64,000 nt of DNA from a virus (IMGVR_UViG_3300020438_004435), one strand, 5' to 3'; shown: positions 397 through 61,921, counted from the first letter of the stretch. Made by a program: numbers and translations. The notes: generated from the letters alone by a model not told the origin.

Positions 397-408
397 ATAA
401 TATAAATA

Positions 409-1474: not shown

Positions 1475-2316
1475 CCGAATAACTCATCAAATAATTTACT
1501 TGCATCAGATCCCGAATTCAATGCGGATTGTCTTGAATTAGGTGTCACCTGTTTAACAGCTTTTTCCTTTTTCGGTACTGGTGGATTATATATATTGGAT
1601 TGGGTAGGAATGTGTTCCTTAATTTTATCCATAGGAGCATCCTTTAATGTTCTAACATTTTGTAACCCGTTCTCTCCAAATTTCCATCTTTCATATTCAA
1701 TTCGGGAAGCCATCATATCCGCTTGATGTAATACATATGGAAGATTAACCTGTATTCTTGTATCAGGATTATATCCCATTAGATATGGTTTATTAGAATC
1801 ATCATACATTCCATCATGTAATTTTATTCCTAGAAATTCATTCCAACTATATTTAATACCAAATTGATTTAATAAAAATAAACTACGATCCGGAACCAAT
1901 GCAAATGGTGTTTCTGAATTTGCTTTATAAAGTTGACCTTGATTCTTTCTATGCCATTCACTAGGATTAGGAATATATGCATCTGTATTCATGTCACCAA
2001 CCTTACCAAGATCATGATTAAGGGCACTAAACAATAATTCCTCTATTGTATAATTATCCGTATATCCTCCAGTACTTACCCAACTATTGTAAACCTCAAA
2101 TGCACAATCCATTACTCTTAATACATGATCTACATATCCGCCTACGAAACAATTATGAAAATGTTCTCTTGAGCTTGCTGGAGCAAACATCATTCTTTCC
2201 TCAAAATAGGAATACATTTCTAAAAGCTTTTCTTTACGCTCACCTTCAAACTGATGATCAATTCGACCCATAAGGTCCTTCCAATTTTCTTTAATTTGTT
2301 TTTCGTCTAATTTCAT
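1471..2316 (-). CDS. HD-domain phosphohydrolase (YhaM-like)
   Basis: APAS..H..H..GG..DH, HDLGK, HDG and HQAD motifs. Confidence 0.8.
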   Translation of the reverse strand: MKLDEKQIKENWKDLMGRIDHQFEGERKEKLLEMYSYFEERMMFAPASSREHFHNCFVGGYVDHVLRVMDCAFEVYNSWVSTGGYTDNYTIEELLFSALNHDLGKVGDMNTDAYIPNPSEWHRKNQGQLYKANSETPFALVPDRSLFLLNQFGIKYSWNEFLGIKLHDGMYDDSNKPYLMGYNPDTRIQVNLPYVLHQADMMASRIEYERWKFGENGLQNVRTLKDAPMDKIKEHIPTQSNIYNPPVPKKEKAVKQVTPNSRQSALNSGSDASKLFDELFG

Positions 2317-2317
2317 A

Positions 2318-2995
2318 TTATGTTATTATTATATCTATTACACCTAATTTTAATGCATCCTTAGAATTAAGATACATATCGGTTTTTATATTTGCATCCC
2401 AAAATTTCTTATCCTTATGGGTTTTTTGTTCTAATAAATCATTGGCCATATTATTAAGATAATCAAAATACTTTCCTGCTGCCTTTACATCTGATTGTTT
2501 ACCTGAAGCCATTGATGATCCTTCATGTAACATAATAGTACTTCTCTTACTAGCCATTCTCTTACCAGTCCCTGCTGCTAATATTACTGCTGCTGCTGAC
2601 AATGCTTTACCTCTACACATTGTATTAATTTTTATACCTAGATTCTTATCCAAGCTTTCCATATAATCTATCATACCAAACATTTCAAAAACATCACCGC
2701 CGTTACTATCAATAACCAAATTAATAGGATCACTTTCTTTATCAGTGCCTGCATGGTATTTCATTATTGTTCTACATCTTGACATAAAATCATATAAAGC
2801 ATAATCTTCTATTTCTCCACAAAGATATATTACTCTATCCTCTACATCAACTGCAAATTCTATTTCTCGATAAAGATATTTTTTATAATCCATTATCTTT
2901 TTTTTAATTTCATTTGTAGGCTTTTCAAATGTACCTTCTTCTAATGTTTCAATTCTTGGAGATTCATATTCTTCTCCATATAAATTATCTGCCAT
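2318..2995 (-). CDS. clpP: ATP-dependent Clp protease proteolytic subunit
   Basis: IDSNGGDV, GKALSAAAVILAAG (catalytic Ser), IMLHEGSS (His), DMYLNSKDA (Asp). Confidence 0.9.
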   Translation of the reverse strand: MADNLYGEEYESPRIETLEEGTFEKPTNEIKKKIMDYKKYLYREIEFAVDVEDRVIYLCGEIEDYALYDFMSRCRTIMKYHAGTDKESDPINLVIDSNGGDVFEMFGMIDYMESLDKNLGIKINTMCRGKALSAAAVILAAGTGKRMASKRSTIMLHEGSSMASGKQSDVKAAGKYFDYLNNMANDLLEQKTHKDKKFWDANIKTDMYLNSKDALKLGVIDIIIT

Positions 2996-2997
2996 AA

Positions 2998-3249
2998 CTA
3001 CCCTTTAAGTATTTGTTTAATATTCTTTGACGTAGATTCATTTCCATAATTATTACCAAAGGCTTCCTCTACGCTTTTACTACTATAACCTAATGCACAA
3101 GCTAATCTTTTACATATTAATTTGAATTCATGTACATCCAAATTTTCTGTTACATCCAATTCTATCTTCTGAACTTCTTTAGAATATGTTCCTCTTGTAT
3201 AAATTATTTTATCCATTCTTATCCTCATTAATATACGGTGCCCTCGCAT
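2998..3249 (-). CDS. hypothetical protein (start uncertain)
   Basis: ORF track; fits the operon. Confidence 0.6.
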   Translation of the reverse strand: MRGHRILMRIRMDKIIYTRGTYSKEVQKIELDVTENLDVHEFKLICKRLACALGYSSKSVEEAFGNNYGNESTSKNIKQILKG

Positions 3250-3448
3250 ATGCTATTATTATATACATTATATTTAATCCTAACATCATCATGAATGAAT
3301 TGAAGAATGATAATTCATCATATCCTATTATTGGACTTATTACAAAATTCCAAACAATGTATAATGGTAATGTGTAAAAGAACCAAAACATTATTACTAA
3401 TGCTGATACTATTGTTAACGAAATTGCTAGAGTTATAAAATCCTTCAT
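3209..3448 (-). CDS. small membrane protein
   Basis: Two hydrophobic segments; start moved to ATG (MKDF) because the track's TTG start lies inside a promoter motif. Confidence 0.65.
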   Translation of the reverse strand: MKDFITLAISLTIVSALVIMFWFFYTLPLYIVWNFVISPIIGYDELSFFNSFMMMLGLNIMYIIIAYARAPYINEDKNG

Positions 3449-3487
3449 ATTATATATAATATACAAAAATTATTTTAATTAACCTAA

Positions 3488-4051
3488 TTATTTCGTAACT
3501 TTCTTTACCTTCTTGGTTCTCTTGACCGGAAAATATTTTCTTTGAATTTTATTGATAGCGGTTTGAATTGGTTTTTTATCTTTCTTTAATTTAGCTTTTG
3601 CTAATTTCTTTTTAAGATCATATAAATAAGACATATCTGTCGCTTTAGTCTTTTCCCGTTCCCTCTTGGTAGGTCTTTTCTTTTTCTTTTTAGATACTAT
3701 CTTGGTTGGTTTTAATGTGCCTTTTAATTTAGGTTGTTCCTTACCCTTGTGATATACCGTTCCATCTGCATCTACAAATTCCTTCATCCATTGCCAACCT
3801 GGTGGTCGACCTGTAGGTTTATATCTTGCAGAAATCTTTGGTGGCTCAGTAATTTTATTAACACATTTATGGCATAATACTCCAGTTACCTCAGATCCTA
3901 CTTTGTCCCAATTAAAACATCTAGGAATATCCTTTAATAAATTCCAACCCCAATAAGATGTATCTTCAACGCTATTTCTACAGATCATATAGCGCTGACC
4001 TTTCTCAGTGTAGGTCTTAAATTCTATTTTGGATTTCTTTTTCTTTGCCAT
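3488..4051 (-). CDS. basic hypothetical protein with CxxC
   Basis: ORF track; Lys-rich; promoter motif upstream. Confidence 0.7.
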   Translation of the reverse strand: MAKKKKSKIEFKTYTEKGQRYMICRNSVEDTSYWGWNLLKDIPRCFNWDKVGSEVTGVLCHKCVNKITEPPKISARYKPTGRPPGWQWMKEFVDADGTVYHKGKEQPKLKGTLKPTKIVSKKKKKRPTKREREKTKATDMSYLYDLKKKLAKAKLKKDKKPIQTAINKIQRKYFPVKRTKKVKKVTK

Positions 4052-4072
4052 AACATTATTATGTGTTTATAT

Positions 4073-4103
4073 TAAATATACAAAAAATAAATTAAATAAC
4101 CAA
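4073..4103 (-). promoter_or_regulatory. Bacteroidota-type sigma70 promoter
   Basis: Minus strand TTGG-N19-TATATTTA; matches the TTG/TAnnTTTG consensus. Confidence 0.6.
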
Positions 4104-4109
4104 CTTTTA

Positions 4110-5372
4110 CTATATATTTGTATAATTTTTTGTATAACCCGGTGGTTTATCGCCTTTAAGACGCTTTTTATTACCTACCTTTTTTCTGGTTCTTTTTTTA
4201 GAATCACCTCTTCTAGTAACACCTTTCTCCTTTCCATGATATAATTCGTGTTCACCGTCTTTAGATTCCTGCTGTTCTTCTTCCTCTTCTAATATTTCTA
4301 TTAAAGCATCTAATCCAGTCTCCTTAGGTTCATTCATATCTTGATCAGGTAACCATTTTTCTTCTTCAAAGGGTAATTCTTCAAGATCATCCATTACGAT
4401 ATCTTTCTTTTCTATTTCTATACTTTCGGTTATACTAGACTTTAATTTATCTTGATTATCTTTTACTCTTTGTTTTAATGCAGGAGAAGGTTCCTTCCAC
4501 TCTTCCGGTATAGGATATGGTTTATTAAATTCCATACCTTTAGGTACTGACATTTTAACAACAGGTGTATTCTTTTTTATTTGGGCAAATGCCATATTAG
4601 CCGCTACTACTAATGCTATAGCTAATGGATCGAATACAAATATAATAAGTAATAGGAACCAGTTAACTACTATTCCCATATCTTGTCCTGTTGTTTCTGC
4701 CAGATATTTTAATGGACCTAATTCACTTTCCGCTTCATTGGAATATTCCTTATCTAATAAAGCTATGTCGGTCTTGTTAATAGAATCCATTACAGCCTCG
4801 ATTCTAATATTAATATTATCTCTATTATCTGTAGCAATAGTTAATTCGTTTTGTAAAGCTCTACGTGCTGAAGATGATGATGTTGTAATTAATTGACCCG
4901 ATTCCTTATCTATATATTGAACCTGTGCTGGATTAGATAATGCTATACGTAAATCAGATATGGATTTAGTTAAACCATTTTTTTCTATTTTAAGATCTTC
5001 CTTTTGTTCTTCGAACCTAATTTGTTTTTGATTGAGAATGGATAATGATTTATCTAATAATTCGGATTGGGTTGCAGTAGATTGATATGCTCCTGATAGG
5101 AATCCATATATACCTCCTGAGGTTATTAGTATCAATATAAAACAAGCTATACCTAAATAAAATCTTAGGAACTTATTTATAGTATCCCAGTATTGATATA
5201 ATAAAGATGCTACGACTAATTTAGCAAATTCTAAAGAGCCGGCCATTATAATTACCTCTGTAGATGCTCCTGCAAATAATTTACTTAATCCAAATACTGA
5301 ATAGAATGCTGCAGAACCCGATACTGCTAATGCTGACAATGCTATTAGAAATGGAAATAATCGTTTTTTCAT
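4110..5372 (-). CDS. multi-pass membrane protein with coiled coil
   Basis: Three N-terminal TM helices, long coiled coil, GPLKY..FVFDPLAIAL TM segment, acidic tail. Confidence 0.75.
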   Translation of the reverse strand: MKKRLFPFLIALSALAVSGSAAFYSVFGLSKLFAGASTEVIIMAGSLEFAKLVVASLLYQYWDTINKFLRFYLGIACFILILITSGGIYGFLSGAYQSTATQSELLDKSLSILNQKQIRFEEQKEDLKIEKNGLTKSISDLRIALSNPAQVQYIDKESGQLITTSSSSARRALQNELTIATDNRDNINIRIEAVMDSINKTDIALLDKEYSNEAESELGPLKYLAETTGQDMGIVVNWFLLLIIFVFDPLAIALVVAANMAFAQIKKNTPVVKMSVPKGMEFNKPYPIPEEWKEPSPALKQRVKDNQDKLKSSITESIEIEKKDIVMDDLEELPFEEEKWLPDQDMNEPKETGLDALIEILEEEEEQQESKDGEHELYHGKEKGVTRRGDSKKRTRKKVGNKKRLKGDKPPGYTKNYTNI

Positions 5373-5374
5373 AC

Positions 5375-5548
5375 TTAATCTTCAAGTTCTAGTAGTTCTC
5401 TTGTTGACTCAATTTTTTTAGTTAATGTAGATAATGCTGCAACGGTTTCGGCTGCAGTAATTTGGCCACCTTCTAATTGTTTAGAAATGTGTGATGCTAA
5501 ATTCTCAAGTGCTTCTAGCTGATTTAATAGTTGTTGTTTATATTTCAT
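5375..5548 (-). CDS. small coiled-coil protein (57 aa)
   Basis: Hand-translated MKYKQQLLNQLEALENLASHISKQLEGG...ELED*; AAAGGAG upstream. Confidence 0.7.
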   Translation of the reverse strand: MKYKQQLLNQLEALENLASHISKQLEGGQITAAETVAALSTLTKKIESTRELLELED

Positions 5549-5675
5549 AGTGTTCTCCTTTATTATATTATATATATAAATATTATAATATTATTAATAT
5601 TATACTTTTTTTCCATTCGTTAATAGAAAATATACAAAAAATATCAATACGATCCTAATGATTTACAGATTATTT

Positions 5676-5927
5676 TTAATATTTTTTATTTTCCTCATAT
5701 TCTATATCTTCTATTCTTTCGCAGAATAGGAAGTTCCCATTCTTCTGAAATACTTTATTTATAGATTTATGATTGTCTTTTAACCATTCAGCCCAAACCC
5801 TTACGATCTTATTTACATCATTAGAATTAATACCATAATGATTAGGATGCATTTGAGTTTCAGGAATAGCTCTGTGTATTATATATAATGAACCTTTATG
5901 GTTCCATATTTTATGTTTGATATTCAT
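5676..5927 (-). CDS. hypothetical protein
   Basis: ORF track. Confidence 0.65.
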   Translation of the reverse strand: MNIKHKIWNHKGSLYIIHRAIPETQMHPNHYGINSNDVNKIVRVWAEWLKDNHKSINKVFQKNGNFLFCERIEDIEYEENKKY

Positions 5928-5952
5928 AACGTATTGACGTGCGGGTCAGCCT

Positions 5953-6189
5953 TTATTTTTTTTCTATAACCTTTTTTACGTTCTTGTCTATACCATATTT
6001 ACATTTAATCCAAGTACGTTCATGAAAATAATACAAAACCATTTTTGTAATTATCTCTAATCCGCTAACAGTTAATCCTGCAGTAATACTGCCAGTGACT
6101 AACCAAGTCAATAAAAGAGTATCCAAGCTGGCAATAGTTCTCCAACTTAGGGTCTTTAATAAACTTCTTCTCTTACTTGCAAACATCAT
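5953..6189 (-). CDS. DUF2061-like small membrane protein
   Basis: RSLLKTLSWR...YYFHERTW signature. Confidence 0.75.
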   Translation of the reverse strand: MMFASKRRSLLKTLSWRTIASLDTLLLTWLVTGSITAGLTVSGLEIITKMVLYYFHERTWIKCKYGIDKNVKKVIEKK

Positions 6190-6197
6190 AATAGACT

Positions 6198-6611
6198 CTA
6201 CTTAATCGTAACCTGTTTAGGTTTAGCTTCATCTGCGAGTGGTGCAAATAAAGTTAATAAACCATTTTCTAATTTAGCTTCTAATTTTGATAAATCAAAT
6301 CTTCCACTGATTCTCCATCCAAAGTTAAATGCCCGCTTAGCTATATTTCTCTGAATGTATTCTGCCGAAGTAGAACCAGGTTCCTTCTTGTATTCTACTC
6401 GAAGTATATCTCCCTCAATAGTAAGATCAATATCTTTCTTTGTTAATCCAACACAAGCTATATCAATATTAAGACCTTCATTGGCCTCATATATGTCTAC
6501 TGGATGGTTTAGTTTAGTTGCATCTGCAAACTGATAGTCTACATCTGTTTTGAAAAAGTCCTTAAATAGGACGTCGAATGGCGAAGTGCCGAATGGTGTT
6601 AATTCTCCCAT
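6198..6611 (-). CDS. small heat-shock protein (Hsp20/alpha-crystallin)
   Basis: PVDIYE...ACVGL...GDILRV...AKLENGLLT...IK pattern. Confidence 0.9.
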   Translation of the reverse strand: MGELTPFGTSPFDVLFKDFFKTDVDYQFADATKLNHPVDIYEANEGLNIDIACVGLTKKDIDLTIEGDILRVEYKKEPGSTSAEYIQRNIAKRAFNFGWRISGRFDLSKLEAKLENGLLTLFAPLADEAKPKQVTIK

Positions 6612-6699
6612 AATAAATCTCCTTAGATAATTTTAATTATTAAACATTATTGTTTTAACATAACTTGCTGACCCGCAGTATCAATAAGTTACTTTAATA

Positions 6700-6730
6700 T
6701 AAATATACAAAAAATTTCTTTAACTACCAA
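6700..6730 (-). promoter_or_regulatory. Bacteroidota-type promoter for hsp20
   Basis: TTGG-N19-TATATTTA on minus strand. Confidence 0.6.
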
Positions 6731-6731
6731 A

Positions 6732-7316
6732 TTAATAGTGAATTATTGGAGTAGTAAATACACCAGGAACCGATACGGATCCTAAAAGCATAAGAATAGG
6801 TGGATCAGTACAACATGTTCCATTAGCCCAACCTCCTGTAGTACAATCATCCAACACTTCCATAGATATAGATAACTGATCTGGTGTGCAAGTAGGACCG
6901 ACTGTTACCTGAAAGCTCATGGTAAATGGTCCAGTGGAACTTGTTCCCCATCCAGCTGTTCCTGAGTTTATGAATCTCCATCCTGGACCAAAATTATATC
7001 CACCAGGATAAGTATGTTGTAAATCCCATACCCAATTACCAATAGCTCCTGCAGGATTACCAGGTGCAGTAATAGGTGTTAAATTTGTAAACCCTGGTCC
7101 TAGGATAATTTGAAATGCATGGATCCAATTTATATTAATTCCATTAAATGATTGAAGGGTATATGTAAGTGTAATTACCTGGCCAGGTATAAAAGTCCCA
7201 ATAGGTAGTGTGGGTGATGAGATTGGTGAATATGAATGGGTTTGAGTTCCAAGGCATGGTTGTGCAACAGCATTAAAACTAAATAGGATACATATTATAA
7301 TTATTATTTTTTTCAT
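6732..7316 (-). CDS. secreted beta-rich protein
   Basis: Signal peptide MKKIIIIICILFSFNAVAQ; ends TTPIIHY. Confidence 0.7.
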   Translation of the reverse strand: MKKIIIIICILFSFNAVAQPCLGTQTHSYSPISSPTLPIGTFIPGQVITLTYTLQSFNGININWIHAFQIILGPGFTNLTPITAPGNPAGAIGNWVWDLQHTYPGGYNFGPGWRFINSGTAGWGTSSTGPFTMSFQVTVGPTCTPDQLSISMEVLDDCTTGGWANGTCCTDPPILMLLGSVSVPGVFTTPIIHY

Positions 7317-7879
7317 CTTACTAATGTTATAGGTCTTACAAATCTATTATTTTTTATAAAAACATTTATGGTATAAACGCCTATAGGATTATCCTTTCCA
7401 TCCCATGGCATATTACTATTGGCTTCAAATATTCGTTGTCCCCATCTATTATAGATTGCAATATATTCTATATCATTAACCGATCTACCACCTACATTAT
7501 ACTGTTCATTAATACCATCACCATTAGGAGTAAAAGAACTAGGAAAGAATAAAGTTGCATAAGGACAAGGAGATATAGAGACCTGATATTCTGATGTATC
7601 TCCATCGCACCCAAACCTAGTCGTATAAACTGATATAAGGTAGTCTCCTGCACTATCTGGCCATTGCACGGTGATAGTGTTAGATGATGCGGAAATGATG
7701 TCTCCGTGCGAGATTGACCAATAGTATATTTTATCAGCTTCATAATCAACCTGATAGGATTGTGGTTGTATAATTGAACAATCGTTATAGGTTTCTTGAG
7801 CTAATAAATGAAGGGGTAGTAATATTAATACCCACCATCTCATATTAAAAATGTTGGATCGGACCAGTGATAGGTCCAT
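7313..7879 (-). CDS. PKD-like protein with gliding-motility-associated (T9SS type B) C-terminal domain
   Basis: FPSSFTPNGDGINE, IYNRWGQRIF, WDG motifs; likely true start at MRWWVL. Confidence 0.85.
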   Translation of the reverse strand: MDLSLVRSNIFNMRWWVLILLPLHLLAQETYNDCSIIQPQSYQVDYEADKIYYWSISHGDIISASSNTITVQWPDSAGDYLISVYTTRFGCDGDTSEYQVSISPCPYATLFFPSSFTPNGDGINEQYNVGGRSVNDIEYIAIYNRWGQRIFEANSNMPWDGKDNPIGVYTINVFIKNNRFVRPITLVR

Positions 7880-8384
7880 TATTTACGGTTACATTTATTG
7901 TAGTATTACATCCAGCCATAGAATAGGTTAATACATAATTACCAACTCCAGTTGATGGTTGAAAATTATTACCTACTACACCTGTACCAGACCAAGTCCC
8001 TCCTGCAGGGCTACCTACTAATGGTGTTGTTGGATCACCAGGACAAAATGGTCCTATGGTATTACCTGATAGATCTAAAATAAATACATCTAAGAGTTGT
8101 GGTGTGCCAGGACAACCAGTCGCATTAGATTCTATTACTTCTACTGCATTAGGATAAAGACCAGATACACCTCCCCAATCTACTGTAATAGAACTTGTGG
8201 TTTGGCCTGTTTGTAAAATACCACCACCACCTGTTATTGTCCATTGATAGGTTGATGTAGGTGTGACAGCAACATAATATTGTTCTCCTGTTGCATTAAC
8301 ACATACTGTGTCTGGGTTAATTGTTGTTTGTGATATTGCAGATATCGATAATGATACCAACAAGATTGTTAGAAATTTTTTCAT
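7845..8384 (-). CDS. secreted PKD-like domain protein
   Basis: Signal peptide; DTVCV..YQWTITGG..ITVDWG..ESNATGC; GGTWSG; ends TGPIQHF. Confidence 0.75.
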   Translation of the reverse strand: MKKFLTILLVSLSISAISQTTINPDTVCVNATGEQYYVAVTPTSTYQWTITGGGGILQTGQTTSSITVDWGGVSGLYPNAVEVIESNATGCPGTPQLLDVFILDLSGNTIGPFCPGDPTTPLVGSPAGGTWSGTGVVGNNFQPSTGVGNYVLTYSMAGCNTTINVTVNNGPITGPIQHF

Positions 8385-8396
8385 AATACATCTCCT

Positions 8397-9284
8397 TTAT
8401 TTATTTGGCATTTCGAATATATAAGTATGAACCAGATTGCCTGCCTGATTTACTTTCTTACGATATTCGCAATTGCCTACGTTTGATTTATTTACTATTT
8501 TTTCCTTAAGGTAATCTAATCGTGATTTGTTTAGAGAACATATAATTAACATACCATCTACCGTAGTACATCTAACCATTCCATCATTTAGGTTTTCCAG
8601 CAATGCACTATTAAACATGTTCTGTACAAATTCATAATCCAATTCAGAATTTGGAACTACACCAAATGCCTTTAATGTATTAATGTTTGGAGACCATGGT
8701 TTGAATTTAGGTATTAATCTTTTACCATTGATAAGTCGTTCCATATAAAAATCAATATTTTCAGGATCAAGAGTGTCGAACCACTTTTCATATTTAGAAT
8801 AATCATTCATAAATATTTCTTCCTTATCTATCGCTCTTAATTTTTCCCATACTAGTGTAGCTATTATTTCATTAGCTTCACCAATCATTTGGGAGTACTG
8901 CATTTGCTGATCATCATTCAATGAGTCGAACCATTCATCAAAATTAAAATTATCATTTTTTAGTTCACTCGGATCAAATAATTTATCTGAATGAGACGTC
9001 CATTGTCCTGACTTAGTAATATCATCTAATCTTGGAAATGAATCATCTAATTCCTTTTTATAATCTTCTGGTGTTATTCTCCTTATAGGAGGTTCAGGTT
9101 TTATTATTTCCTGTCGTTGAAAATCAATACTCCTATCTGATAATATTTTATTACGAATTTCATCATCTAACATATCTAAATAATTGAACATTAATTCATC
9201 ATCACAATTATAGTATTCAAGGTTGTATTTTTTACCTTCAACCTTAACACGCTTCTTTAGATATGGTGCAACAATTTTCTTCAT
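8397..9284 (-). CDS. acidic hypothetical protein (295 aa)
   Basis: Start reassigned to MKKIVAPY; the track's 33-aa extension runs through the tmRNA. Confidence 0.7.
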   Translation of the reverse strand: MKKIVAPYLKKRVKVEGKKYNLEYYNCDDELMFNYLDMLDDEIRNKILSDRSIDFQRQEIIKPEPPIRRITPEDYKKELDDSFPRLDDITKSGQWTSHSDKLFDPSELKNDNFNFDEWFDSLNDDQQMQYSQMIGEANEIIATLVWEKLRAIDKEEIFMNDYSKYEKWFDTLDPENIDFYMERLINGKRLIPKFKPWSPNINTLKAFGVVPNSELDYEFVQNMFNSALLENLNDGMVRCTTVDGMLIICSLNKSRLDYLKEKIVNKSNVGNCEYRKKVNQAGNLVHTYIFEMPNK

Positions 9285-9304
9285 AATATTCCTAATAAAA
9301 ATAA

Positions 9305-9515
9305 CCAACCACCACCGGGCTTTAACGACTTGCCCTATTAATGCCGTTGGGTCAGGGTGCCTAAGCCGCCATCGCCATTTCAACTTGTTCGCCAGTTACG
9401 CGTCGACCTTCCTATACCCTTATCATTGTGTCAAATCCAGTCACCCCCATGAAGTTAAATAATTTAGTGGAGGTGGAGGGTATCGAACCCTCGTCCATCA
9501 ATGCAGCTAATATAA
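9305..9515 (-). ncRNA. ssrA: circularly permuted (two-piece) tmRNA; tag (A)GEQVEMAMAA
   Basis: T-arm plus 3' acceptor strand GAGGGTTCGATACCCTC-CACCTCCA (9492-9468) lies upstream of the 5' strand GGGGGTGACTGGATTTGAC (from 9448); 7-bp stem with G3.U70; tag ORF 9393-9361 follows GTAACT. Confidence 0.9.
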
Positions 9516-9516
9516 G

Positions 9517-9801
9517 TCAAACAGTCGTTTCCTTATCAAGTATTGATTCTTTAATCTGAACCAACCTTGCACATCTTTCATACGCTTCAATTGAAATATA
9601 ATATTCAATCATCGTATCAATAGTATCTATAGAGTTTGCATTAGATAATAACCAAGAACCTGGTTTAATATCTTCTATCTTTTTTTTGCCATTAAGAAAC
9701 CTAAACGTATTGTTAACAGCTAAATGCAAAAGCTTGTCATCAGTGCTATGTATAGGATCTATATTCATAAACCCGTCAACAACCCTTTGGACAGTGCGCA
9801 A
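9517..9801 (-). CDS. small protein with C-terminal UvrB/UvrC (UVR)-like motif
   Basis: IEYYISIEAYERCARLVQIKE. Confidence 0.65.
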   Translation of the reverse strand: MRTVQRVVDGFMNIDPIHSTDDKLLHLAVNNTFRFLNGKKKIEDIKPGSWLLSNANSIDTIDTMIEYYISIEAYERCARLVQIKESILDKETTV

Positions 9802-9876
9802 CTCTTGGTAACATAAATCTAATAGTAATCATAATATCCTCTCTTATTGTTTATAATAAATAGTATATAATAAGTG

Positions 9877-10341
9877 TTAACTTGGCTTGAGAAATGTATT
9901 TATTTTTTTATGTTCCTTATATATATCATTCATACGTATTTTTTCTTTTGTATAAATTTTATCTATAGCTTCATAATTAAAAATCATATCATTAATAAAT
10001 TTTTTATCATTGATGTATGATTCGGTATCAAAATTATTTAGATCCTTACTTAACTCTATATTTTCTAAGACTATGTCTTTAAGAGATTGAAGCTTGGATC
10101 TAAATTTATCACCCTTTGTACTTTCTATATAATCATTAGATACGTTATCAATGATTCCACTAATAGTATTTCTAATTCTAGCACCCTGAACAGGATCATT
10201 TTCAGCAATACGTTTTAATTCATCTTGTATTTCTAATTGGTTAAGAGTTCGATCAGCTAATTGCTTTAGCTTTTTTCGCTTTTCCTTTTCCACCCACGTT
10301 AGCTTTTTTGCTGACGATGACTGCCGCTTTCTTTTTGCCAT
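9877..10341 (-). CDS. hypothetical coiled-coil protein
   Basis: ORF track. Confidence 0.65.
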   Translation of the reverse strand: MAKRKRQSSSAKKLTWVEKEKRKKLKQLADRTLNQLEIQDELKRIAENDPVQGARIRNTISGIIDNVSNDYIESTKGDKFRSKLQSLKDIVLENIELSKDLNNFDTESYINDKKFINDMIFNYEAIDKIYTKEKIRMNDIYKEHKKINTFLKPS

Positions 10342-10504
10342 TTCTTTTATAGTTTCTGGAAGGTCTTCTAGTCTTAGATAGTGTTAACTTTCTTCTAAGC
10401 TCATCTATAACTTTATCTAATTCACCTTTTCTTTTATTGTTTACATAATTAGCCGATATTATTCCTGCTAATAAACCTAGTACTCCTGCTATTGCATATA
10501 ACAT
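10253..10504 (-). CDS. membrane-anchored protein with basic tail
   Basis: N-terminal TM, short coiled coil, Lys/Arg-rich end. Confidence 0.6.
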   Translation of the reverse strand: MLYAIAGVLGLLAGIISANYVNNKRKGELDKVIDELRRKLTLSKTRRPSRNYKRNGKKKAAVIVSKKANVGGKGKAKKAKAIS

Positions 10505-10527
10505 ATTTTTCCCTTTATTCTTTTTAA

Positions 10528-10583
10528 GTAGAAGGTAGACGATATAAATACGGGATGTAAATTATACCGCCTACCACTTCTAC
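10528..10583 (-). other. long intergenic hairpin
   Basis: GTAGAAG/CTTCTAC, GTAGGCG/CGTCTAC and GTATAA/TTATAT arms on minus strand. Confidence 0.55.
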
Positions 10584-10595
10584 AAAATTATACAA

Positions 10596-10820
10596 TTACT
10601 TCTTAACGAAAAAAGAAGCTAGTAAAACTAATACAATTAACCCTACAAATCCACCATTACCTAATGATGTGATAAGTGCTGTTAAGTTAGCTACTACATC
10701 CATTCCGAAAACTGATCCACCTGTTAAGATGTACCAAAGGATTGTTACTGGAAGAACTGCCATTAAGACTGTTCCTAATCCTGTAAAGAATCCACTTACA
10801 TATTTGATTACATTATCCAT
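10596..10820 (-). CDS. small hydrophobic two-TM protein
   Basis: Almost entirely hydrophobic, 74 aa; GGAG upstream. Confidence 0.75.
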   Translation of the reverse strand: MDNVIKYVSGFFTGLGTVLMAVLPVTILWYILTGGSVFGMDVVANLTALITSLGNGGFVGLIVLVLLASFFVKK

Positions 10821-10874
10821 GTTAAAATCTCCTATATTTTTGTCGTCCTACTTGTTATTGGACACTATTGTCCT

Positions 10875-11386
10875 ATTAACTATGAAGGGTCCCCATTATG
10901 GGATTATTAGAATCGGTATGCCAACCCTAGGTTGAAGCTACCTTCTCGTTCCCCGTTTTCGTCTTCTTTAAGACCCATGCTGTAATTTGGTTCAACATGT
11001 AAACCATTCCACACAGCGAAAGAGTAACCAAGGCCAATTGTTAAATTGTCCATCATCTCTTCGGTTGGCGCTTGAACTGCAACATACATATTTGCATTCC
11101 AATTGTATCTACCCCAAAGATCATAATTAGTATTACCTTCAGCGTCTTCGCCATTCTTTACTAGACCAACAACATAAGTATCACCTATTTTATATCCGAT
11201 ACCCATATTGTCTGTTAAATTTGCAACTTCAAATGATTCGCCTTCCTCTGCAGCATTATAGGTAGTCACTACCATAAAATTTTGAGCTGAAGCAAACATT
11301 GTAGCGCATGCTAATGTTAGTGTTAAAAATAAATTTCTCATATTTTTTCTCTCCTTTATAAATTAAAATTTACCTTCATAGTTAAT
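10875..11386. repeat. 14-bp perfect inverted repeat flanking the omp gene
   Basis: ATTAACTATGAAGG (10875-10888) and CCTTCATAGTTAAT (11373-11386). Confidence 0.65.
10907..11341 (-). CDS. small outer-membrane beta-barrel protein
   Basis: Signal peptide, amphipathic strands (GIGYKIG, IGLGYSF, VEPNY), C-terminal FNLGLAYRF. Confidence 0.8.
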   Translation of the reverse strand: MRNLFLTLTLACATMFASAQNFMVVTTYNAAEEGESFEVANLTDNMGIGYKIGDTYVVGLVKNGEDAEGNTNYDLWGRYNWNANMYVAVQAPTEEMMDNLTIGLGYSFAVWNGLHVEPNYSMGLKEDENGEREGSFNLGLAYRF

Positions 11387-11485
11387 TGTTAATAAAATAT
11401 TCGTGCACCGAATCTTACTGAGTATAATTATAACCCGCAGGTTTTTTATATATTGTCATATAATCTTCTATACACGAACACTTAA

Positions 11486-11692
11486 TTATTGCACCTTGGC
11501 TTTCACCTTTCTAGGTGCCTTATATGCATTCTTTTTAGTCTTATTAGTATTAGTTTTCAGTAGACTGATTACTAAATCTTTATCTAGCATTCTATCTTTT
11601 AATTCACTAATTTTGTTACTAAAATACCAAAAAGAAGCCAGAGCTCCGACAAGGGCTCCGACAACTGCTAATATAATTCCTGTTAATTCCAT
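11486..11692 (-). CDS. membrane-anchored protein with basic tail
   Basis: TM + coiled coil + Lys-rich end; GGAG upstream. Confidence 0.7.
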   Translation of the reverse strand: MELTGIILAVVGALVGALASFWYFSNKISELKDRMLDKDLVISLLKTNTNKTKKNAYKAPRKVKAKVQ

Positions 11693-11700
11693 ATTATCTC

Positions 11701-11976
11701 CTATAATGTACCTAAACTTTTTGCAACCTTATAAGAATGTTTACCTGCCTCTAATACGTCTCCTATCTTACTACATTCAGTAAACGTTAGTGGCACTCTA
11801 ATATCTCCAATCACTAATTCTCCGATTGTAGTATTATTGTATCCATCCTTACCATCTCCTCTCATTCCTTCTTTAATTTCGAAATCGATTTGGTTCCATA
11901 AATTTCCATACTTTTTTTCTCTTGGGTGCGTATGCAATCCCGCTTGGGCAACACTGCCTCTAAACTTCTGATTCAT
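11701..11976 (-). CDS. hypothetical protein
   Basis: ORF track. Confidence 0.65.
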   Translation of the reverse strand: MNQKFRGSVAQAGLHTHPREKKYGNLWNQIDFEIKEGMRGDGKDGYNNTTIGELVIGDIRVPLTFTECSKIGDVLEAGKHSYKVAKSLGTL

Positions 11977-12040
11977 CTTTTTATTATTTATTGATTAATT
12001 ATATATAATATACAAAATTTATTTGTAATATCCTACTGTT

Positions 12041-12379
12041 TTATGATTTATATCTATTACCGCGTCTTTTATTTATACGGTTAATTTTAGCTTCTACCAT
12101 TTCTCCTGTAAATTTATCAGGATGTGTTCGTCTTATATTCCTGGATAATTTAACTCCATACTCAGCAGCATTATACCATGCTTCCCATATAGTCTTAGAT
12201 GGTGGAATCATTAGATCATCACCCAATACTCCTCCTATACCATTTGATACAAAATATCTACCATCTAATTGTCTGCTTGTAGTTGCTCTTGGATATACCT
12301 TTGTAACCTTCTTTTTCAATTTTGTGAATAATTTCCTTTTCTTTTCTGTAGGAAATTCACGTAACTCATTTATATTCAT
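12041..12379 (-). CDS. hypothetical protein
   Basis: ORF track. Confidence 0.65.
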   Translation of the reverse strand: MNINELREFPTEKKRKLFTKLKKKVTKVYPRATTSRQLDGRYFVSNGIGGVLGDDLMIPPSKTIWEAWYNAAEYGVKLSRNIRRTHPDKFTGEMVEAKINRINKRRGNRYKS

Positions 12380-12859
12380 TTATATTATTTTTGGTTCTTT
12401 ACTAAATTCCTTTATGTCTCCTGTTATTAAATCCTCTTCTACCCACTTTCCTATCAATTCGGATTCACTAGCTAAATAGGTAACCCTAGCATATACTAAT
12501 TTATCCAAATTATCTTTTACATTGGTACGAAAATTAACAAGATCATTATCAGTAGGAACAGGACCCATCTGATAACCTATCATATCTTTTTCTTTTAATT
12601 TGAATTGTGCTATAGGATTAATTGTGTAATGATTATACTTCGCTTTCCACTTAGCTTTCTCTGTTCCTTTCTTAGGACCTCTTTTATATAATCTATCTTC
12701 TAAATTTTCTACTTCAGATCTAACCTGGGTTCCACATCTTGTACATAATAATGTTTCTGCTAAGGTTTCTGGTGAGGTGGTTTTGATTGCATGAGCATAT
12801 CCACATCTTGGACATACTTCTAAATCTTGGATTTCATGTGTTTCTGTTTTCATATTCAT
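12380..12859 (-). CDS. zinc-ribbon hypothetical protein
   Basis: CPRCG and CTRCG pairs. Confidence 0.7.
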   Translation of the reverse strand: MNMKTETHEIQDLEVCPRCGYAHAIKTTSPETLAETLLCTRCGTQVRSEVENLEDRLYKRGPKKGTEKAKWKAKYNHYTINPIAQFKLKEKDMIGYQMGPVPTDNDLVNFRTNVKDNLDKLVYARVTYLASESELIGKWVEEDLITGDIKEFSKEPKII

Positions 12860-12865
12860 AACTCC

Positions 12866-13114
12866 TTAATTGCTTATATAATTCTTTACTTCCATTTCTG
12901 TTGGGTAGCCAAGAGTTGTATCACAGCCCTCACAAACCCATCTTATATCAACCTGCGAGGGTGAAAGATTTTTTGGGATCAAACGAATCACTTTAATTTC
13001 GTGTTTACATTTATCTCTTATAACTTTTAGCTCTCGCTCGACATCACGTTTCCTGGTGAGAAGAATCTCAACCTTTCTGTTAGTTGCCATAGGTATATAA
13101 ATAGTGCCTACCAT
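12866..13114 (-). CDS. small putative zinc-binding protein (start uncertain)
   Basis: CKHE...CEGC. Confidence 0.6.
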   Translation of the reverse strand: MVGTIYIPMATNRKVEILLTRKRDVERELKVIRDKCKHEIKVIRLIPKNLSPSQVDIRWVCEGCDTTLGYPTEMEVKNYISN

Positions 13115-13371
13115 TCTTTCAACTTCGTTAATTTAGCACATTTTTCATACTCCTCGGTTGTAATATAATACTCTATAATCTCATCAAGAAGCCTTCTTTT
13201 CTTATATTTTGAACCAGGCCATTCATTCCACATAGTGATATCTTCTAGTATAACTTTATACATCATATTATACCATGAACTACTTAATTCATTTAACTTA
13301 TCTATTAAATCTTGTGCTGTTATATCGTCTGGATTTATATCCATATTTGCTATTTTTAGTTGATTTAACAA
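13108..13371 (-). CDS. small protein with C-terminal UVR-like motif
   Basis: IIEYYITTEEYEKCAKLTKLKE. Confidence 0.65.
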   Translation of the reverse strand: MLNQLKIANMDINPDDITAQDLIDKLNELSSSWYNMMYKVILEDITMWNEWPGSKYKKRRLLDEIIEYYITTEEYEKCAKLTKLKEW

Positions 13372-13421
13372 GAGATCTCTAACTCACACACATATGTAAG
13401 TAGGGAGCCACTGTAACCATA

Positions 13422-13868
13422 TTATACCTGCTTGTTCATATATTCCATTACACTATCCCATCCTGGATATTTTTTAGATCCGAAATGTAACCATTCGCCT
13501 TCAAAATCCTTTTGACCTCTATAAAAGGTATCATCAATAAGATAATCACCCTTTGCTAAATTTTTATGATGACTTAATATTAATCTTCTTTTAGCTTTAG
13601 GAATATACTTTTCAATCCAATTCTTTTTATGTATCCATGCATCAGGATTTCTCCACGGTGGAGTAGATAAAATATATACATCAAACATTTCAAACAATTT
13701 TTCAAATGCATCTATAGCGCCAGGCATAGGATCCAAATTATCAAATATACCAGGCATCATATCATATGTACTTTTACTATACTTATCCTTATCAGGATGC
13801 TTTTGGATGGCTCCATAAAAATCACATAAGACTCCATCCATATCAATGTAACAAATTTTCTTTTTCAT
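13422..13868 (-). CDS. 5'(3')-deoxyribonucleotidase (NT5C, HAD family)
   Basis: YIDMDGVLCDF, ILSTP, K..W, GDYLIDD. Confidence 0.9.
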   Translation of the reverse strand: MKKKICYIDMDGVLCDFYGAIQKHPDKDKYSKSTYDMMPGIFDNLDPMPGAIDAFEKLFEMFDVYILSTPPWRNPDAWIHKKNWIEKYIPKAKRRLILSHHKNLAKGDYLIDDTFYRGQKDFEGEWLHFGSKKYPGWDSVMEYMNKQV

Positions 13869-13875
13869 ATTATTA

Positions 13876-15972
13876 TTATTTAGTTAGAAATAAATTATTT
13901 AATGTCTTTGCTAATGGCACTAATGAAGATACATCAACATTAGCTGATGACTTACCATACATCTTTCTAAATGTACTACCTACCTCATCTCTCTTATATC
14001 CTGAAATGAAATAACTAAGAACCTTAATACCTTTCTTTCTCATTTTATCAATCTCACCTTTCGTATGAGCTGCAGCTTCATCACCTGCATAATAAAATCC
14101 TTTAGGATTACAATAAGGTTCTCCATCAGAGAAATTAATAAAATAACTTTCTCTATCCCCAGAAGCTTTTACTAAATGATTTTGAATAGCTTCGAATGTT
14201 AAACCTTCAGGTGTTAAAGAAGAAGGTGTAATATACTTAAACAAACTTCTAATCTTATTAAATTTATCTACTCTAGAATCATAAGCAATCATCACACAAG
14301 GTATTCCTTCCTTACCTGTTGTTGTTCTATATGATAATTGTATATCTAAATTATCCACCATCGAAGCTGCCTTAGCAATAGCAACCACTGCTGTCTGACT
14401 AGAATACCATTTATCTCCACTCATCGAACCACTAGCATCAATACTAATATGAACATTAGCAGGAGTATATTTATCATTCATTACCTGCTGAAATACTCTC
14501 TCCGCACCATAACCTAATGAAGCGATTAATCTCTTATCAATCTTACCAGAATCTAATCTAGAAAATTTAGTATTTCTTTCTTCACTTCTTAATTTTAATT
14601 TCTTACCGAGCATCGTACCTAATCTAATACCCTTTACTATGGCTTCCGCATTTGCTTCCTTTCTCCATCTATGATATTCATGACTAATCAAAAAATCATA
14701 ACCACCACTATCAATTAACCCTTTTGTTAATTTATTAATAACAATACATTCTGTATCAGGCTTTTTATTTTTACTCACCCATCTATTAAAATACGTGGAT
14801 CCTACCTTTTTAATTTCCGAACCCGACTCTTCTAAAGCCTTCATTTTCTTTTGATCCGTTTTATTCATTTTTGTTTTCTTTATCTCACCACGAATAAAAT
14901 CTTCCTGCTTCTTAATAGCATTAGCTAATTTTCTATTCTGAGGAGGAGACATAGGACCATTACCAACCGAACTTGAACCACCAGACTTCTTAGCTTCTTC
15001 TCCTTCAGCCTTCGAACCATCATCATCACTATCGCCTTCAATAGATCCTTTAGGACTTGAACATCCTAAATTATCACCTTGACAATCCGAATCTTCTCCT
15101 CTATTATCATCATTGGATTCTTCATCCCCTGTATTATCATCTTTCTGAAATAAATCAGGTGCAGGTATATTTTCCTCTACTTCATAAAATATTTCCAATG
15201 CAATCTTAAGAGCATCTTCTGTATTTTTTATCTTACCAATATTTTTAAGATCCATTATTTTCCAAATCTTTCTTAATCCAGGTAATGCATCAAGATCTCT
15301 ATTCTCATTTGTAATATTACAAATTCTAAACATATAAGAATCCCAATCAAGATCTCTCTTCTCCGAAGACATAAGACCTTTATCAATTATCTTAGCATTA
15401 AAATACTTTTCATATAATGCATGATAATAACCTTTATAACCAGGAGCAGACTTAAAAATAAAATTATCAATTCTTCTATCCTCTACTATATTTAATAATG
15501 GCTTAACATGATCTCTAATATATCTAAATGTTTTATCCGTTTGATATTGATGATCATTTCTTAAATGATCAAAATACTTTTTAGCAATATTATTTACCAA
15601 TTCGATTTCATCATTAAGAATATCATCCTTCCTAAGAAAATCCTTTAACACTTGAAAATCTGTTAACTTAATATGAGATCCCTCATGTAAAGCTAAACCA
15701 ACAGCAGCATCAAAATCTTTATCTTTTAATGAAGCAGATATATTAACCGCTTTACCATCCGTATAAGAATCTGAACCACTAAAATATACAGGAACATTTT
15801 TACCTGTAACTATATTAACGAAATTAGCTATTGCTCTTCGATAACCAGCAAGCTTAATTAAATCTTGTGTCTTATCCTTTACCTCTAAACCAGTAAGGAT
15901 ATCTACATTATTATTATCGAATAGGCTATCTCCTAGCCACCATGATGAATTTGAATTGTTATTGTATTGCAT
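13876..15972 (-). CDS. vWA-domain protein (CobT-like partner of MoxR AAA) with N-terminal HExxH region
   Basis: LALHEGSH, NIVEDRRID, acidic linker, MIDAS IDASGSMS...T...SDGEP. Confidence 0.85.
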   Translation of the reverse strand: MQYNNNSNSSWWLGDSLFDNNNVDILTGLEVKDKTQDLIKLAGYRRAIANFVNIVTGKNVPVYFSGSDSYTDGKAVNISASLKDKDFDAAVGLALHEGSHIKLTDFQVLKDFLRKDDILNDEIELVNNIAKKYFDHLRNDHQYQTDKTFRYIRDHVKPLLNIVEDRRIDNFIFKSAPGYKGYYHALYEKYFNAKIIDKGLMSSEKRDLDWDSYMFRICNITNENRDLDALPGLRKIWKIMDLKNIGKIKNTEDALKIALEIFYEVEENIPAPDLFQKDDNTGDEESNDDNRGEDSDCQGDNLGCSSPKGSIEGDSDDDGSKAEGEEAKKSGGSSSVGNGPMSPPQNRKLANAIKKQEDFIRGEIKKTKMNKTDQKKMKALEESGSEIKKVGSTYFNRWVSKNKKPDTECIVINKLTKGLIDSGGYDFLISHEYHRWRKEANAEAIVKGIRLGTMLGKKLKLRSEERNTKFSRLDSGKIDKRLIASLGYGAERVFQQVMNDKYTPANVHISIDASGSMSGDKWYSSQTAVVAIAKAASMVDNLDIQLSYRTTTGKEGIPCVMIAYDSRVDKFNKIRSLFKYITPSSLTPEGLTFEAIQNHLVKASGDRESYFINFSDGEPYCNPKGFYYAGDEAAAHTKGEIDKMRKKGIKVLSYFISGYKRDEVGSTFRKMYGKSSANVDVSSLVPLAKTLNNLFLTK

Positions 15973-16008
15973 ATAATTTATTGTTTTATTATCTCTCTTT
16001 ATCTATGA

Positions 16009-16064
16009 TAAAGATACGAAGAATAAATGAGATAACCTACTGAAATCATAAAAAGTTATGAACA
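16009..16064 (-). promoter_or_regulatory. promoter (TATCTTTA -7 box) with upstream AAGTTATGAACA box
   Basis: Repeated module also at 16116-16180, 23356-23421 and 23882-23958. Confidence 0.6.
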
Positions 16065-16115
16065 ATTTACATTTAATATAGCTATCGCTTTTAATCATCT
16101 CTCATCTTTATAATA

Positions 16116-16180
16116 TAAAGATACGAAAAATAATTGACATATACACGCTTTTTGGCATTTATTTTTATAAGTTATGAACA
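16116..16180 (-). promoter_or_regulatory. second promoter plus AAGTTATGAACA box
   Basis: TAATATAAAGATACGAAAAATA...GGCATTTATTTT..AAGTTATGAACA is shared with 23877-23958. Confidence 0.55.
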
Positions 16181-16186
16181 AAAATA

Positions 16187-16330
16187 AAAAAAAGGCTCTC
16201 GGTCGATTATCAGTTGGATATATAAGTGAGCAACTATAATCTTAACACTCTACACCACGTGAAGGTGGCCTTTATTCGTAAAGCTATGGAAGTATAGAGG
16301 AACCCATTGACTTCCATATAACGTAACTAT
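16187..16330 (-). ncRNA. candidate structured ncRNA of unknown family
   Basis: Own promoter (16338-16368), several perfect stems, possible pseudoknot, ends in a U-tract. Confidence 0.5.
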
Positions 16331-16337
16331 ATTATAT

Positions 16338-16368
16338 ATAATATACAAAAAATATATTTAATAACCAA
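16338..16368 (-). promoter_or_regulatory. Bacteroidota-type promoter
   Basis: TTGG-N19-TATATTAT. Confidence 0.55.
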
Positions 16369-16392
16369 ATGTTTCTTCATTTATTTTATTGA

Positions 16393-16554
16393 TTACCATT
16401 GTCTTGGTTTATCCGGACATTTAGCTCCTGGAACCTTTGTTTTAACTATCATAAAACATTTACATATACTACACTGTCTGGTTATCTTCCAGAAGTTAGA
16501 ACATGCCTTACATATTGCCATTCGCTTACTTGGATCCTTTTCTATGTGTTCCAC
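16393..16554 (-). CDS. small Cys-rich (zinc-binding) phage protein
   Basis: Hand-translated (GTG start; alternative ATG at 16521): ...RMAICKACSNFWKITRQCSICKCFMIVKTKVPGAKCPDKPRQW*. Confidence 0.7.
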   Translation of the reverse strand: MEHIEKDPSKRMAICKACSNFWKITRQCSICKCFMIVKTKVPGAKCPDKPRQW

Positions 16555-16741
16555 TTTTCTTTCCCTTATTGTCCTTAACTATTTGATATGCTGCATCCAT
16601 TCTATCACATACTTCCATCCATTTATATTTATCTTGTGTTGATAGGCTTTTAGATACTCTCATCACCTCATCATAGATGCCTTCATCATATGCCTGATAT
16701 AATATATCTTCGACATTGCTCATCGCTAATAACTCTTCCAA
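16526..16741 (-). CDS. hypothetical protein
   Basis: ORF track. Confidence 0.65.
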   Translation of the reverse strand: MEELLAMSNVEDILYQAYDEGIYDEVMRVSKSLSTQDKYKWMEVCDRMDAAYQIVKDNKGKKSGTHRKGSK

Positions 16742-17028
16742 TTGCTGTCGTTCAATAAACCTTCAAGGCGGGTAATTTTATCTCCTTGGTTTCTTATTAT
16801 ATTTTGTAAGTTTTTCATCTGCGTATTATTATCCAAATGTGTTTTGTTAATCTTTACATGAATAAGTTCATCAGCATCATCTAGATGTTTAGATTCCCTT
16901 TCAATGGCATCATCAAGATCCATTAATTTAATATCTAGATAGTCTAATCTTTTATTTAATTTATGATTGTCATATATCATATAACCTAATACCATAATTG
17001 CTACTGTTGATGTAATTGTTGTAACCAT
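16726..17028 (-). CDS. membrane-anchored coiled-coil protein
   Basis: N-terminal TM, heptads. Confidence 0.65.
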   Translation of the reverse strand: MVTTITSTVAIMVLGYMIYDNHKLNKRLDYLDIKLMDLDDAIERESKHLDDADELIHVKINKTHLDNNTQMKNLQNIIRNQGDKITRLEGLLNDSNWKSY

Positions 17029-17185
17029 AATTTACCCTTTGTTAATAATTTAGTAATAAACTCTTCATATATAATTATATACTTTGAGCATTATTTATGT
17101 TATTTATTTTCATGAAATCAAAGATAGACATTAGCCCCTTCATATATATTATATTAATGATAACGGTATTTGCATTAGGCGTTAA

Positions 17186-17973: not shown

Positions 17974-17974
17974 A

Positions 17975-19636: not shown

Positions 19637-19689
19637 ACGATTAATTTTATTATTACTTTAATATACAAAAAATATTTGACATATCCAAA

Positions 19690-60321: not shown

Positions 60322-60322
60322 A

Positions 60323-61920: not shown

Positions 61921-61921
61921 A

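Follow-up and report, generated by a model that had tools for sequence, protein, structure and literature searches.

Permuted tmRNAs in bacteria and phages

Two-piece tmRNAs are textbook markers of the Alphaproteobacteria, of some Betaproteobacteria and of cyanobacteria, and pseudoknot 1 is present in nearly all tmRNAs. Of the 24,454 Bacteroidota tmRNA genes in the tmRNA database, 24,380 show the standard form and 48 are permuted. Two-piece tmRNAs typically retain pseudoknots 1 and 2 (PMC3985003), and a merged Rfam model, RF04321, represents the permuted form (PMC11915505). Among phages, 53 of 133 unique tmRNAs were classified as two-piece by ARAGORN, mostly from marine phages, and Cellulophaga phage phi4:1 is listed with them (PMC9004378).

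The gene described here is a permuted tmRNA gene at positions 9313-9527 on the minus strand of a 64,000-nucleotide stretch of DNA from a large uncultured phage, hereafter the window. It resembles the two-piece tmRNAs of aquatic myophages, such as OM43 phage Melnitz, pelagimyophages and cyanophages (PMC9004378), in being a permuted ssrA on a large T4-like marine phage and in its presumed use of host enzymes for processing and charging, with no SmpB found in the window or its large relatives. However, the tmRNAs of those phages are of alpha- or cyano-type, with a lineage that matches their hosts or donors, and can carry a glutamine riboswitch (PMC9004378), whereas the window tmRNA has a Bacteroidota-style tag, lacks pseudoknot 1, is smaller and scores below the thresholds of all lineage models. 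No blastn similarity to the aquatic myophage tmRNAs was found in 50,697 phage records.

Closer in host range are Chryseobacterium phage MA9V-3 (PV245944) and the crAss-like phage cr50_1 (MT774375), whose permuted tmRNAs, annotated in GenBank, were confirmed with ARAGORN and Rfam. Both share with the window the permuted order, a near-identical T-arm and acceptor, a tag that begins with G, an unencoded CCA and hosts whose own tmRNA is one-piece. They differ in the spacer, which has 56 nt in MA9V-3, about 200 nt in cr50_1 and 19 nt in the window, and in the tag (GNVIDINKYVAKLEVAA and GNNFVTDYTAIGA); furthermore, MA9V-3 shows a terminator hairpin where the window has its post-tag pseudoknot, and neither RNA has clear similarity to that of the window beyond the tRNA-like domain. 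Permuted tmRNAs were already on record for Bacteroidota phages in these two annotations and in the published entry for phi4:1. The permuted call in phi4:1 was not reproduced: RF04321 gave 15.6 bits, and ARAGORN made no call at the same place. The window tmRNA is neither unique to its phage nor the first permuted tmRNA from Bacteroidota phages. In cr50_1, the long spacer itself contains a T-arm-like GGUUCGACUCC motif (L003:1530-1740), and an RAGATH-22 RNA (156 bits; L003:854-1020) is located about 450 nt upstream of the permuted tmRNA.

The window RNA reaches the threshold of none of the three lineage models (beta, RF01850; alpha, RF01849; cyano, RF01851). The betaproteobacterial model is the best of them and shares the overall layout, in which a long helix joins the 5' part of the acceptor piece to the coding piece; nevertheless, with 44.8 bits the window RNA falls short of the threshold of 84, has a tag of another type and contains only the post-tag pseudoknot. 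The alpha and cyano models are unlisted for the window, being below the gathering score, and lower-scoring overlapping matches of the same clan are suppressed. Relatives of the window RNA score 46.8-54.9 bits with beta_tmRNA (threshold 84) and 32-48 bits with the cyano model (threshold 70). Compared with the one-piece tmRNA (RF00023) of Bacteroidota and of Cellulophaga phages Calle_1 and phi38:1, the window RNA shows 94% identity across 34 nt of T-arm and acceptor, has the same ACUA at its 3' end and begins its tag with G-E, as does the Bacteroides tag GETNYALAA; unlike the window RNA, the one-piece molecule has the standard order, about 360 nt and several pseudoknots.

Further compact permuted tmRNAs with the layout of the window RNA were found in IMG/VR, for example one with a GKV... 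tag. Another example (L006, L034, L035 and L044) is a second family with the tags ANDNFALAA and ADGEFALAA, which sits in dense tRNA arrays on contigs of up to 176 kb and scores 57-68 bits with RF04321, under the beta and cyano thresholds.

Organization of the gene

This phage locus very likely encodes a functional tmRNA of the circularly permuted, two-piece form, its activity being predicted from sequence. The tmRNA is real and unusually small, and it belongs to a widespread phage family in which gene finders detect the relatives' copies. On the minus strand, the T-arm and the 3' acceptor strand come first, followed by a 19-nt spacer, the 5' acceptor strand, the tag frame and one pseudoknot (Table 1). 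This is the gene order required of a permuted tmRNA, with the 3' half at 9492-9468, the spacer at 9467-9449 and the 5' strand from 9448. Every coordinate of the first-pass annotation was re-read and matched the sequence.

Table 1. Features of the tmRNA gene and of neighboring genes in the window.
Feature	Position	Strand	Description	Basis
P2c	9523..9527 with 9404-9408	-	outer inter-piece helix, 5' strand CGACU	covariation
P2b	9510..9516 with 9411-9417	-	middle inter-piece helix, 5' strand CUUAUAU	covariation
Internal-loop strand	9504..9509 with 9418-9423	-	UAGCUG, opposite AUAAGG	near-invariant columns in the 28-sequence alignment
P2a	9499..9503 with 9424-9428	-	inner inter-piece helix, 5' strand CAUUG	covariation
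T-arm	9476..9492	-	5-bp stem, loop UUCGAUA	sequence reading and RF04321
3' acceptor strand and discriminator	9475-9469; A73 at 9468	-	CACCUCC, A73	sequence reading
Intervening sequence	9449..9467	-	A/U-rich, 19 nt; presumed removed in processing	
5' acceptor strand and D-loop analogue	9429..9448 (strand 9448-9442)	-	GGGGGUG, then ACUGGAUUUGACA	sequence reading and RF04321
3' strands of P2a, P2b and P2c	9404..9428	-	with loop AUAAGG	covariation
Resume-codon hairpin	9381..9398	-	UAACU/AGUUG, 5 bp; 8-nt loop holding GGC (9393); hairpin includes the frame-setting NUAA	covariation
Tag frame	9361..9393	-	GGC..GCU UAG, reads (A)GEQVEMAMAA; 11 codons including stop	sequence reading
Closing helix	9356-9359 with 9313-9316	-	CACC/GGUG; 3' end of the conserved RNA	covariation
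H-type pseudoknot (element 9313..9359)	S1 9343-9348 with 9324-9329; S2 9332-9335 with 9317-9320	-		covariation
Downstream protein gene	8397..9284	-	295 aa, start ATG 9284; no family match	
Upstream ORF	9517..9801	-	94 aa; stop 9517-9519 inside the start of the tmRNA gene	
Phage-encoded ClpP	2318..2995	-	6.3 kb downstream of the tmRNA, same strand	PF00574, 98 bits

In Rfam 15, the permuted model RF04321 (tmRNA_permuted) matches 9361-9528 on the minus strand with 58.0 bits (gathering score 47) and an E-value of 1e-8, covering model positions 1-213 of 213, and this is the sole Rfam match within the 64-kb window. Relatives score 57-71 bits with the same model. The score above the gathering threshold, together with covariation in 28 distinct homologues, upholds the first-pass reading of a compact, circularly permuted tmRNA, for which a search with one-piece and two-piece covariance models had been proposed.

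The acceptor stem has seven base pairs (9448-9442 with 9475-9469) and contains the alanine identity pair G3.U70 (G9446 with U9471) as well as A73. The D-loop analogue ends in UUUGAC. CCA is not encoded, since CUA follows A73; in the relatives the three bases 3' of A73 are C-N-A, and CCA is encoded in one of them, L009. T-arm and acceptor stem are invariant across the relatives, which is uninformative because the search pattern itself fixed those positions. Few parts of the gene are as poorly conserved as the spacer, with a mean column identity of 0.73 versus 0.99-1.0 in the flanking tRNA-like segments, and its length ranges between 16 and 24 nt in the relatives.

Family of relatives and phage lineage

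A scan of IMG/VR with a pattern for the permuted junction retrieved 41 loci, and about 33 of these, with 28 distinct sequences, clearly contain the RNA found in the window. Over the RNA, their identity to the window copy is 70-85%, the nearest being L007 (84.9%). Their flanking genes show the same neighborhood as positions 1-14000 of the window, with amino acid identities of 45-90%, and therefore the tmRNA is a stable feature of one phage lineage. According to CheckV, the largest fragments of 75.5 and 67 kb correspond to 45 and 39% of a genome, which places the genomes of this lineage at about 170 kb. The large terminase encoded by one related fragment shares 58.6% identity with its counterpart in Flavobacterium phage vB_FspM_immuto. 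In this Baltic Sea phage of 160 kb, the terminase gene adjoins a T4 gp20-like capsid assembly gene. The relatives are viral contigs and one has this T4-type terminase, in agreement with the first-pass assignment of the element to a phage; the lineage looks like a T4-like phage that appears to be lytic. By terminase, immuto is the nearest cultured relative, and it has no match to RF04321.

The strict pattern found no member of the family in 185,579 bacterial and archaeal species genomes (one genome each), where the only two matches were unrelated and from Actinomycetota. The permuted arrangement is therefore neither the ordinary form in the hosts nor common prophage cargo, which removes an objection raised in the first-pass annotation, that it might simply be the usual form of the host group. 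Megablast of positions 1-20000 of the window against the 50,697 phage records gave no match, and blastn of the RNA gave matches of 30-36 nt to the T-arm and acceptor only; by this search, no cultured phage among those records carries the family. No description of this compact Bacteroidota-phage tmRNA family was found in the searchable literature.

In ten relatives (L005, L009, L014, L016, L019, L030, L037, L039, L040 and L041), a conserved element absent from the window is located 40-110 nt past the tmRNA. A GAGGGU...ACCCUC hairpin comes first and then a conserved stretch with GCGUCUGAGACGUC; the element might combine a terminator with a second RNA or a binding site.

Secondary structure and covariation

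Base pairing in the proposed structure was counted after the 28 distinct copies had been aligned with MAFFT. Across these homologues, 92.9% of cells are paired, compared with 39-49% when the partners are slid by one to three columns; 16 pairs are altered on both sides, and none of 500 shuffles matched the observed values. Covariation across related phages, suggested beforehand as a check, supports the three inter-piece helices, the resume-codon hairpin, the closing helix and both stems of the pseudoknot.

Helix 2, which joins the two pieces, is divided in three segments with 90-97% of cells paired and eight pairs altered on both sides. The outer segment, P2c, shows the pair sets GACC/GGUC, GAUC/GAUC and GAAC/GUUC in the family; its 5' strand is the start of the conserved acceptor piece and overlaps the final codons of the upstream ORF. 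In P2b, 96.9% of cells are paired and three pairs are altered on both sides, and in P2a both-side changes are found at four of the six family pairs. In the nearly invariant 6x6 internal loop UAGCUG/AUAAGG within this helix, tandem G.A pairs could form. Since its conservation exceeds that of the flanking helices, the loop may serve to bind a protein or to introduce a kink.

The space between the last strand of helix 2 and the resume codon has only about 10 nt (9394-9403), so no pseudoknot 1 is possible there, and none is present. Instead, a 5-bp hairpin presents the resume codon, with 100% of cells paired in the 28 sequences. In four sequences its closing pair is A-U instead of U-A, a substitution that also turns residue 3 of the tag from Q into H. 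In E. coli, tagging survives the replacement of pseudoknot 1 by a hairpin or a single strand (PMC4236655).

The post-tag pseudoknot, placed by the first-pass annotation at 9317-9348, stands at those coordinates. S1 and S2 have seven pairs altered on both sides, and S2 is formed by at least five different sets of complementary strands in the family. On single sequences, enumeration found the pseudoknot no better than in shuffles, and the folding energy is unremarkable relative to shuffles (z 0.32). The window copy can also form a competing stem, CCCUG/UAGGG, which is not conserved in the family; the pseudoknot is preferred because family covariation alone selects it. Conservation falls beyond the closing helix. 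The mature RNA is thus predicted to have about 200 nt and a single pseudoknot, located after the tag.

Tag sequence

The resume codon is GGC rather than AUG and is preceded by GUAA at positions -6 to -3; the tag ends in AMAA. A frame-setting NUAA at -6 to -3 and an A as the second base of the +2 codon are found as in known tmRNAs, for which an AUAA or AUAG tetramer is preferred (PMC4236655).

Tags were counted in 35 family entries, among them the window copy, copies identical to one another and two loci that were retrieved anew (L051 and L052). GEQVEMAMAA is found in 13 entries and GEQVELAMAA in eight, while GETVEMAMAA, GEHVEMAMAA and GAQVEMAMAA are found in four each. In the other two entries (L017:8459-8707 and L033:9933-10182), the tag is lengthened to 37 residues inside an otherwise conserved RNA of the same scaffold and still ends in AMAA. 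Tag variation is confined to residues 2, 3 and 6, the terminal AMAA is invariant and the frame is open in all relatives. Synonymous changes are found in the codons of Ala7, Ala9, Ala10 and, where present, Leu6, and stops across the relatives are TAA, TAG and TGA. Synonymous changes beside an invariant AMAA indicate that selection acts on the peptide.

In starting with G-E and ending with AA, the tag is similar to GETNYALAA, the native tag of Bacteroides; the first-pass annotation had called it Bacteroidota-like on the general ground that Bacteroidota tags begin with GE and end with AA. Its description of the tag as novel does not hold, since the identical tag is found at 12 other IMG/VR loci, where ARAGORN reads it. 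The tag strings had no occurrence in the searchable literature.

Host and genome context

Several proteins encoded in the window are of Bacteroidota type. The product of 7313-7879 has a CHU_C domain of type IX secretion, that of 43731-48851 (1706 aa) combines a Por_Secre_tail sorting domain with a MAM domain, and that of 48854-51265 is a TonB-dependent, SusC-like receptor of 803 aa with Plug, beta-barrel and N-terminal CarboxypepD_reg domains. To our knowledge, type IX secretion is essentially confined to Bacteroidota. The type IX secretion domains, the SusC-like receptor and the flavobacterial-phage-like terminase of the lineage indicate that the host is very probably a member of Bacteroidota, as first proposed, and probably of Flavobacteriia. 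The receptor gene adjoins that of the 1706-aa protein, and a phage does not usually carry such large host-like cargo for the outer membrane and for secretion; L017 encodes a homologue of the 1706-aa protein with 41% identity.

Downstream of the tmRNA, the homologues of the neighboring protein gene in the relatives align from about 9290 downward. The 328-aa form of this ORF, which starts at the first TTG and covers the tmRNA, is an over-extension because homology begins near ATG 9284, and the first-pass suspicion of a wrongly extended ORF was correct. The reading of the tmRNA region as protein-coding, with ORFs of 328, 79 and 43 aa, was rejected. No promoter motif was found between the upstream 94-aa ORF and the tmRNA gene; most relatives show a conserved A/T-rich motif at the position of this ORF.

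Genes for Hsp20 and ClpP both lie within 7 kb of the tmRNA. ClpP is present in three of five large related contigs and missing from two; therefore a partnership between tag and protease is plausible, but not obligatory. SmpB was not found among the 56 ORFs of the window searched with Pfam or in five large related contigs; these contigs are 21-45% complete and the window covers 64 kb of its genome, so that the result points only weakly to a need for host factors.

A sugar-modification gene cluster is located at 56633-63377 and encodes a DUF4910/DUF2172 aminopeptidase-like protein, a methyltransferase, a UDP-glucose dehydrogenase-like protein, a nucleotide-sugar epimerase, a family 2 glycosyltransferase and NeuB; it may modify a surface polysaccharide or a nonulosonic acid. 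All 73 non-nested ATG-started ORFs of at least 90 aa in the window are on the minus strand. No tRNA genes are present in the 64-kb window.

Proposed function and origin

From established tmRNA biology, we infer the following processing, charging and tagging steps. The precursor would be transcribed together with the upstream ORF, probably by read-through, because no promoter-like motif is found and the stop of this ORF is inside the gene. Host RNase P would cut 5' of G9448, and the 3' side would be trimmed at A9468 and completed by the host CCA-adding enzyme, giving two pieces that remain base-paired, the acceptor piece with about 63 nt and the coding piece with about 136 nt. Host AlaRS would charge the RNA with alanine, and host SmpB and EF-Tu would bring it to ribosomes stalled on broken mRNAs, where translation would resume at GGC 9393, append AGEQVEMAMAA and release the ribosome at UAG. 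The tagged protein would then be handed to proteases of the Clp type, among them perhaps the ClpP that the phage encodes. The likely benefit for the phage would be that ribosomes are kept free and truncated proteins recycled during the destruction of host mRNA.

The RNA might act instead as a decoy that binds host SmpB, AlaRS or ribosomes and so damps or redirects host trans-translation without productive tagging. Its strong reduction, the missing pseudoknot 1 and the negative search for a phage SmpB (56 window ORFs and five contigs 21-45% complete) would suit such a role, and a tag-less tmRNA-like RNA of mycobacteriophage DS6A is reported to inhibit the endogenous tmRNA (PMC11915505). A pure decoy, however, would need neither a tag frame open in all relatives, nor synonymous Ala and Leu codons with an invariant AMAA, nor a conserved frame-setting element, and pseudoknot 1 is dispensable for tagging in E. 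coli, where a hairpin or single strand suffices (PMC4236655); we consider this role quite improbable. Even less credence, practically none, is given to a functionless remnant of a host ssrA left by an attachment site or by imprecise excision. ssrA is a frequent integration site of phages, which then carry its 3' end. Here, however, the 28 distinct copies contain the two halves as well as the tag frame and the pseudoknot, and these elements covary; the permuted order differs from that of the host gene, the family is missing from the 185,579 species genomes under the strict pattern, and the lineage resembles a lytic T4-type phage. The attachment-site remnant was rejected on these grounds.

For the tagging tmRNA itself, two origins were weighed. 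Descent from a phage-borne permuted lineage of marine T4-like phages, with later adaptation of the tag to Bacteroidota, has in our judgment a little under an even chance. Two-piece tmRNAs are common in marine myophages (PMC9004378), and beta_tmRNA is the second-best Rfam model, both here (44.8 bits) and in the relatives and another phage family (46.8-54.9 bits). The other compact permuted tmRNAs of IMG/VR also have a short spacer, a long inter-piece helix and a resume codon soon after it, while bearing the tags ANDNFALAA, ADGEFALAA and GKV...; this shared compact layout and the beta-like second-best score favor a common phage lineage. On the other hand, the beta, alpha and cyano scores are all far under the gathering scores (84 and 70), similarity to the other families is weak outside the tRNA-like domain, and the blastn matches of the tRNA-like part in the 50,697 phage records are Bacteroidota-phage tmRNAs and a tRNA-Gly gene found in two records of a single Acinetobacter phage, with no pelagiphage or cyanophage tmRNA among them. 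These matches and the Bacteroidota-like GGC GAA (G-E) start of the tag favor a Bacteroidota-type origin. A further independent permutation, which the first-pass annotation had proposed for a Bacteroidota phage and which would have arisen on a phage from a one-piece Bacteroidota-type ssrA, can accordingly be put forward only tentatively; it would have given a minimal scaffold of about 200 nt, with no pseudoknot 1, a hairpin-held resume codon and the 6x6 loop, that sets the frame unlike model tmRNAs and maybe feeds the phage ClpP, and we regard this combination as rather unlikely.

The presence of the two-piece form in phages of Bacteroidota hosts with a one-piece tmRNA implies that the permutation travels on, or arises on, phages. 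With dozens of covarying variants of a scaffold of about 200 nt and one pseudoknot, the family is a natural experiment on the minimum size of a tagging tmRNA and could guide structural and minimal-system studies of trans-translation. Furthermore, the closeness of a phage ClpP to a tag ending in AMAA raises the testable idea that tagging directed by the phage is linked to proteolysis.

Detection by gene finders

ARAGORN, proposed as a check in permuted mode, gave a divided result: with default settings it makes no call in the window, but it reports a permuted tmRNA in most relatives, several of them with exactly GEQVEMAMAA. With lowered thresholds it detects the tRNA-like domain of the window copy and reads a wrong tag. 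As Rfam 15 detects the copy that ARAGORN misses, phage annotation by ARAGORN alone under-reports such genes, which end up under false ORFs. In chimeras constructed in silico with L007, the miss depended only on the block 9399-9450, which starts shortly ahead of the 5' acceptor strand, runs up to the resume context and is one base shorter in the window copy.
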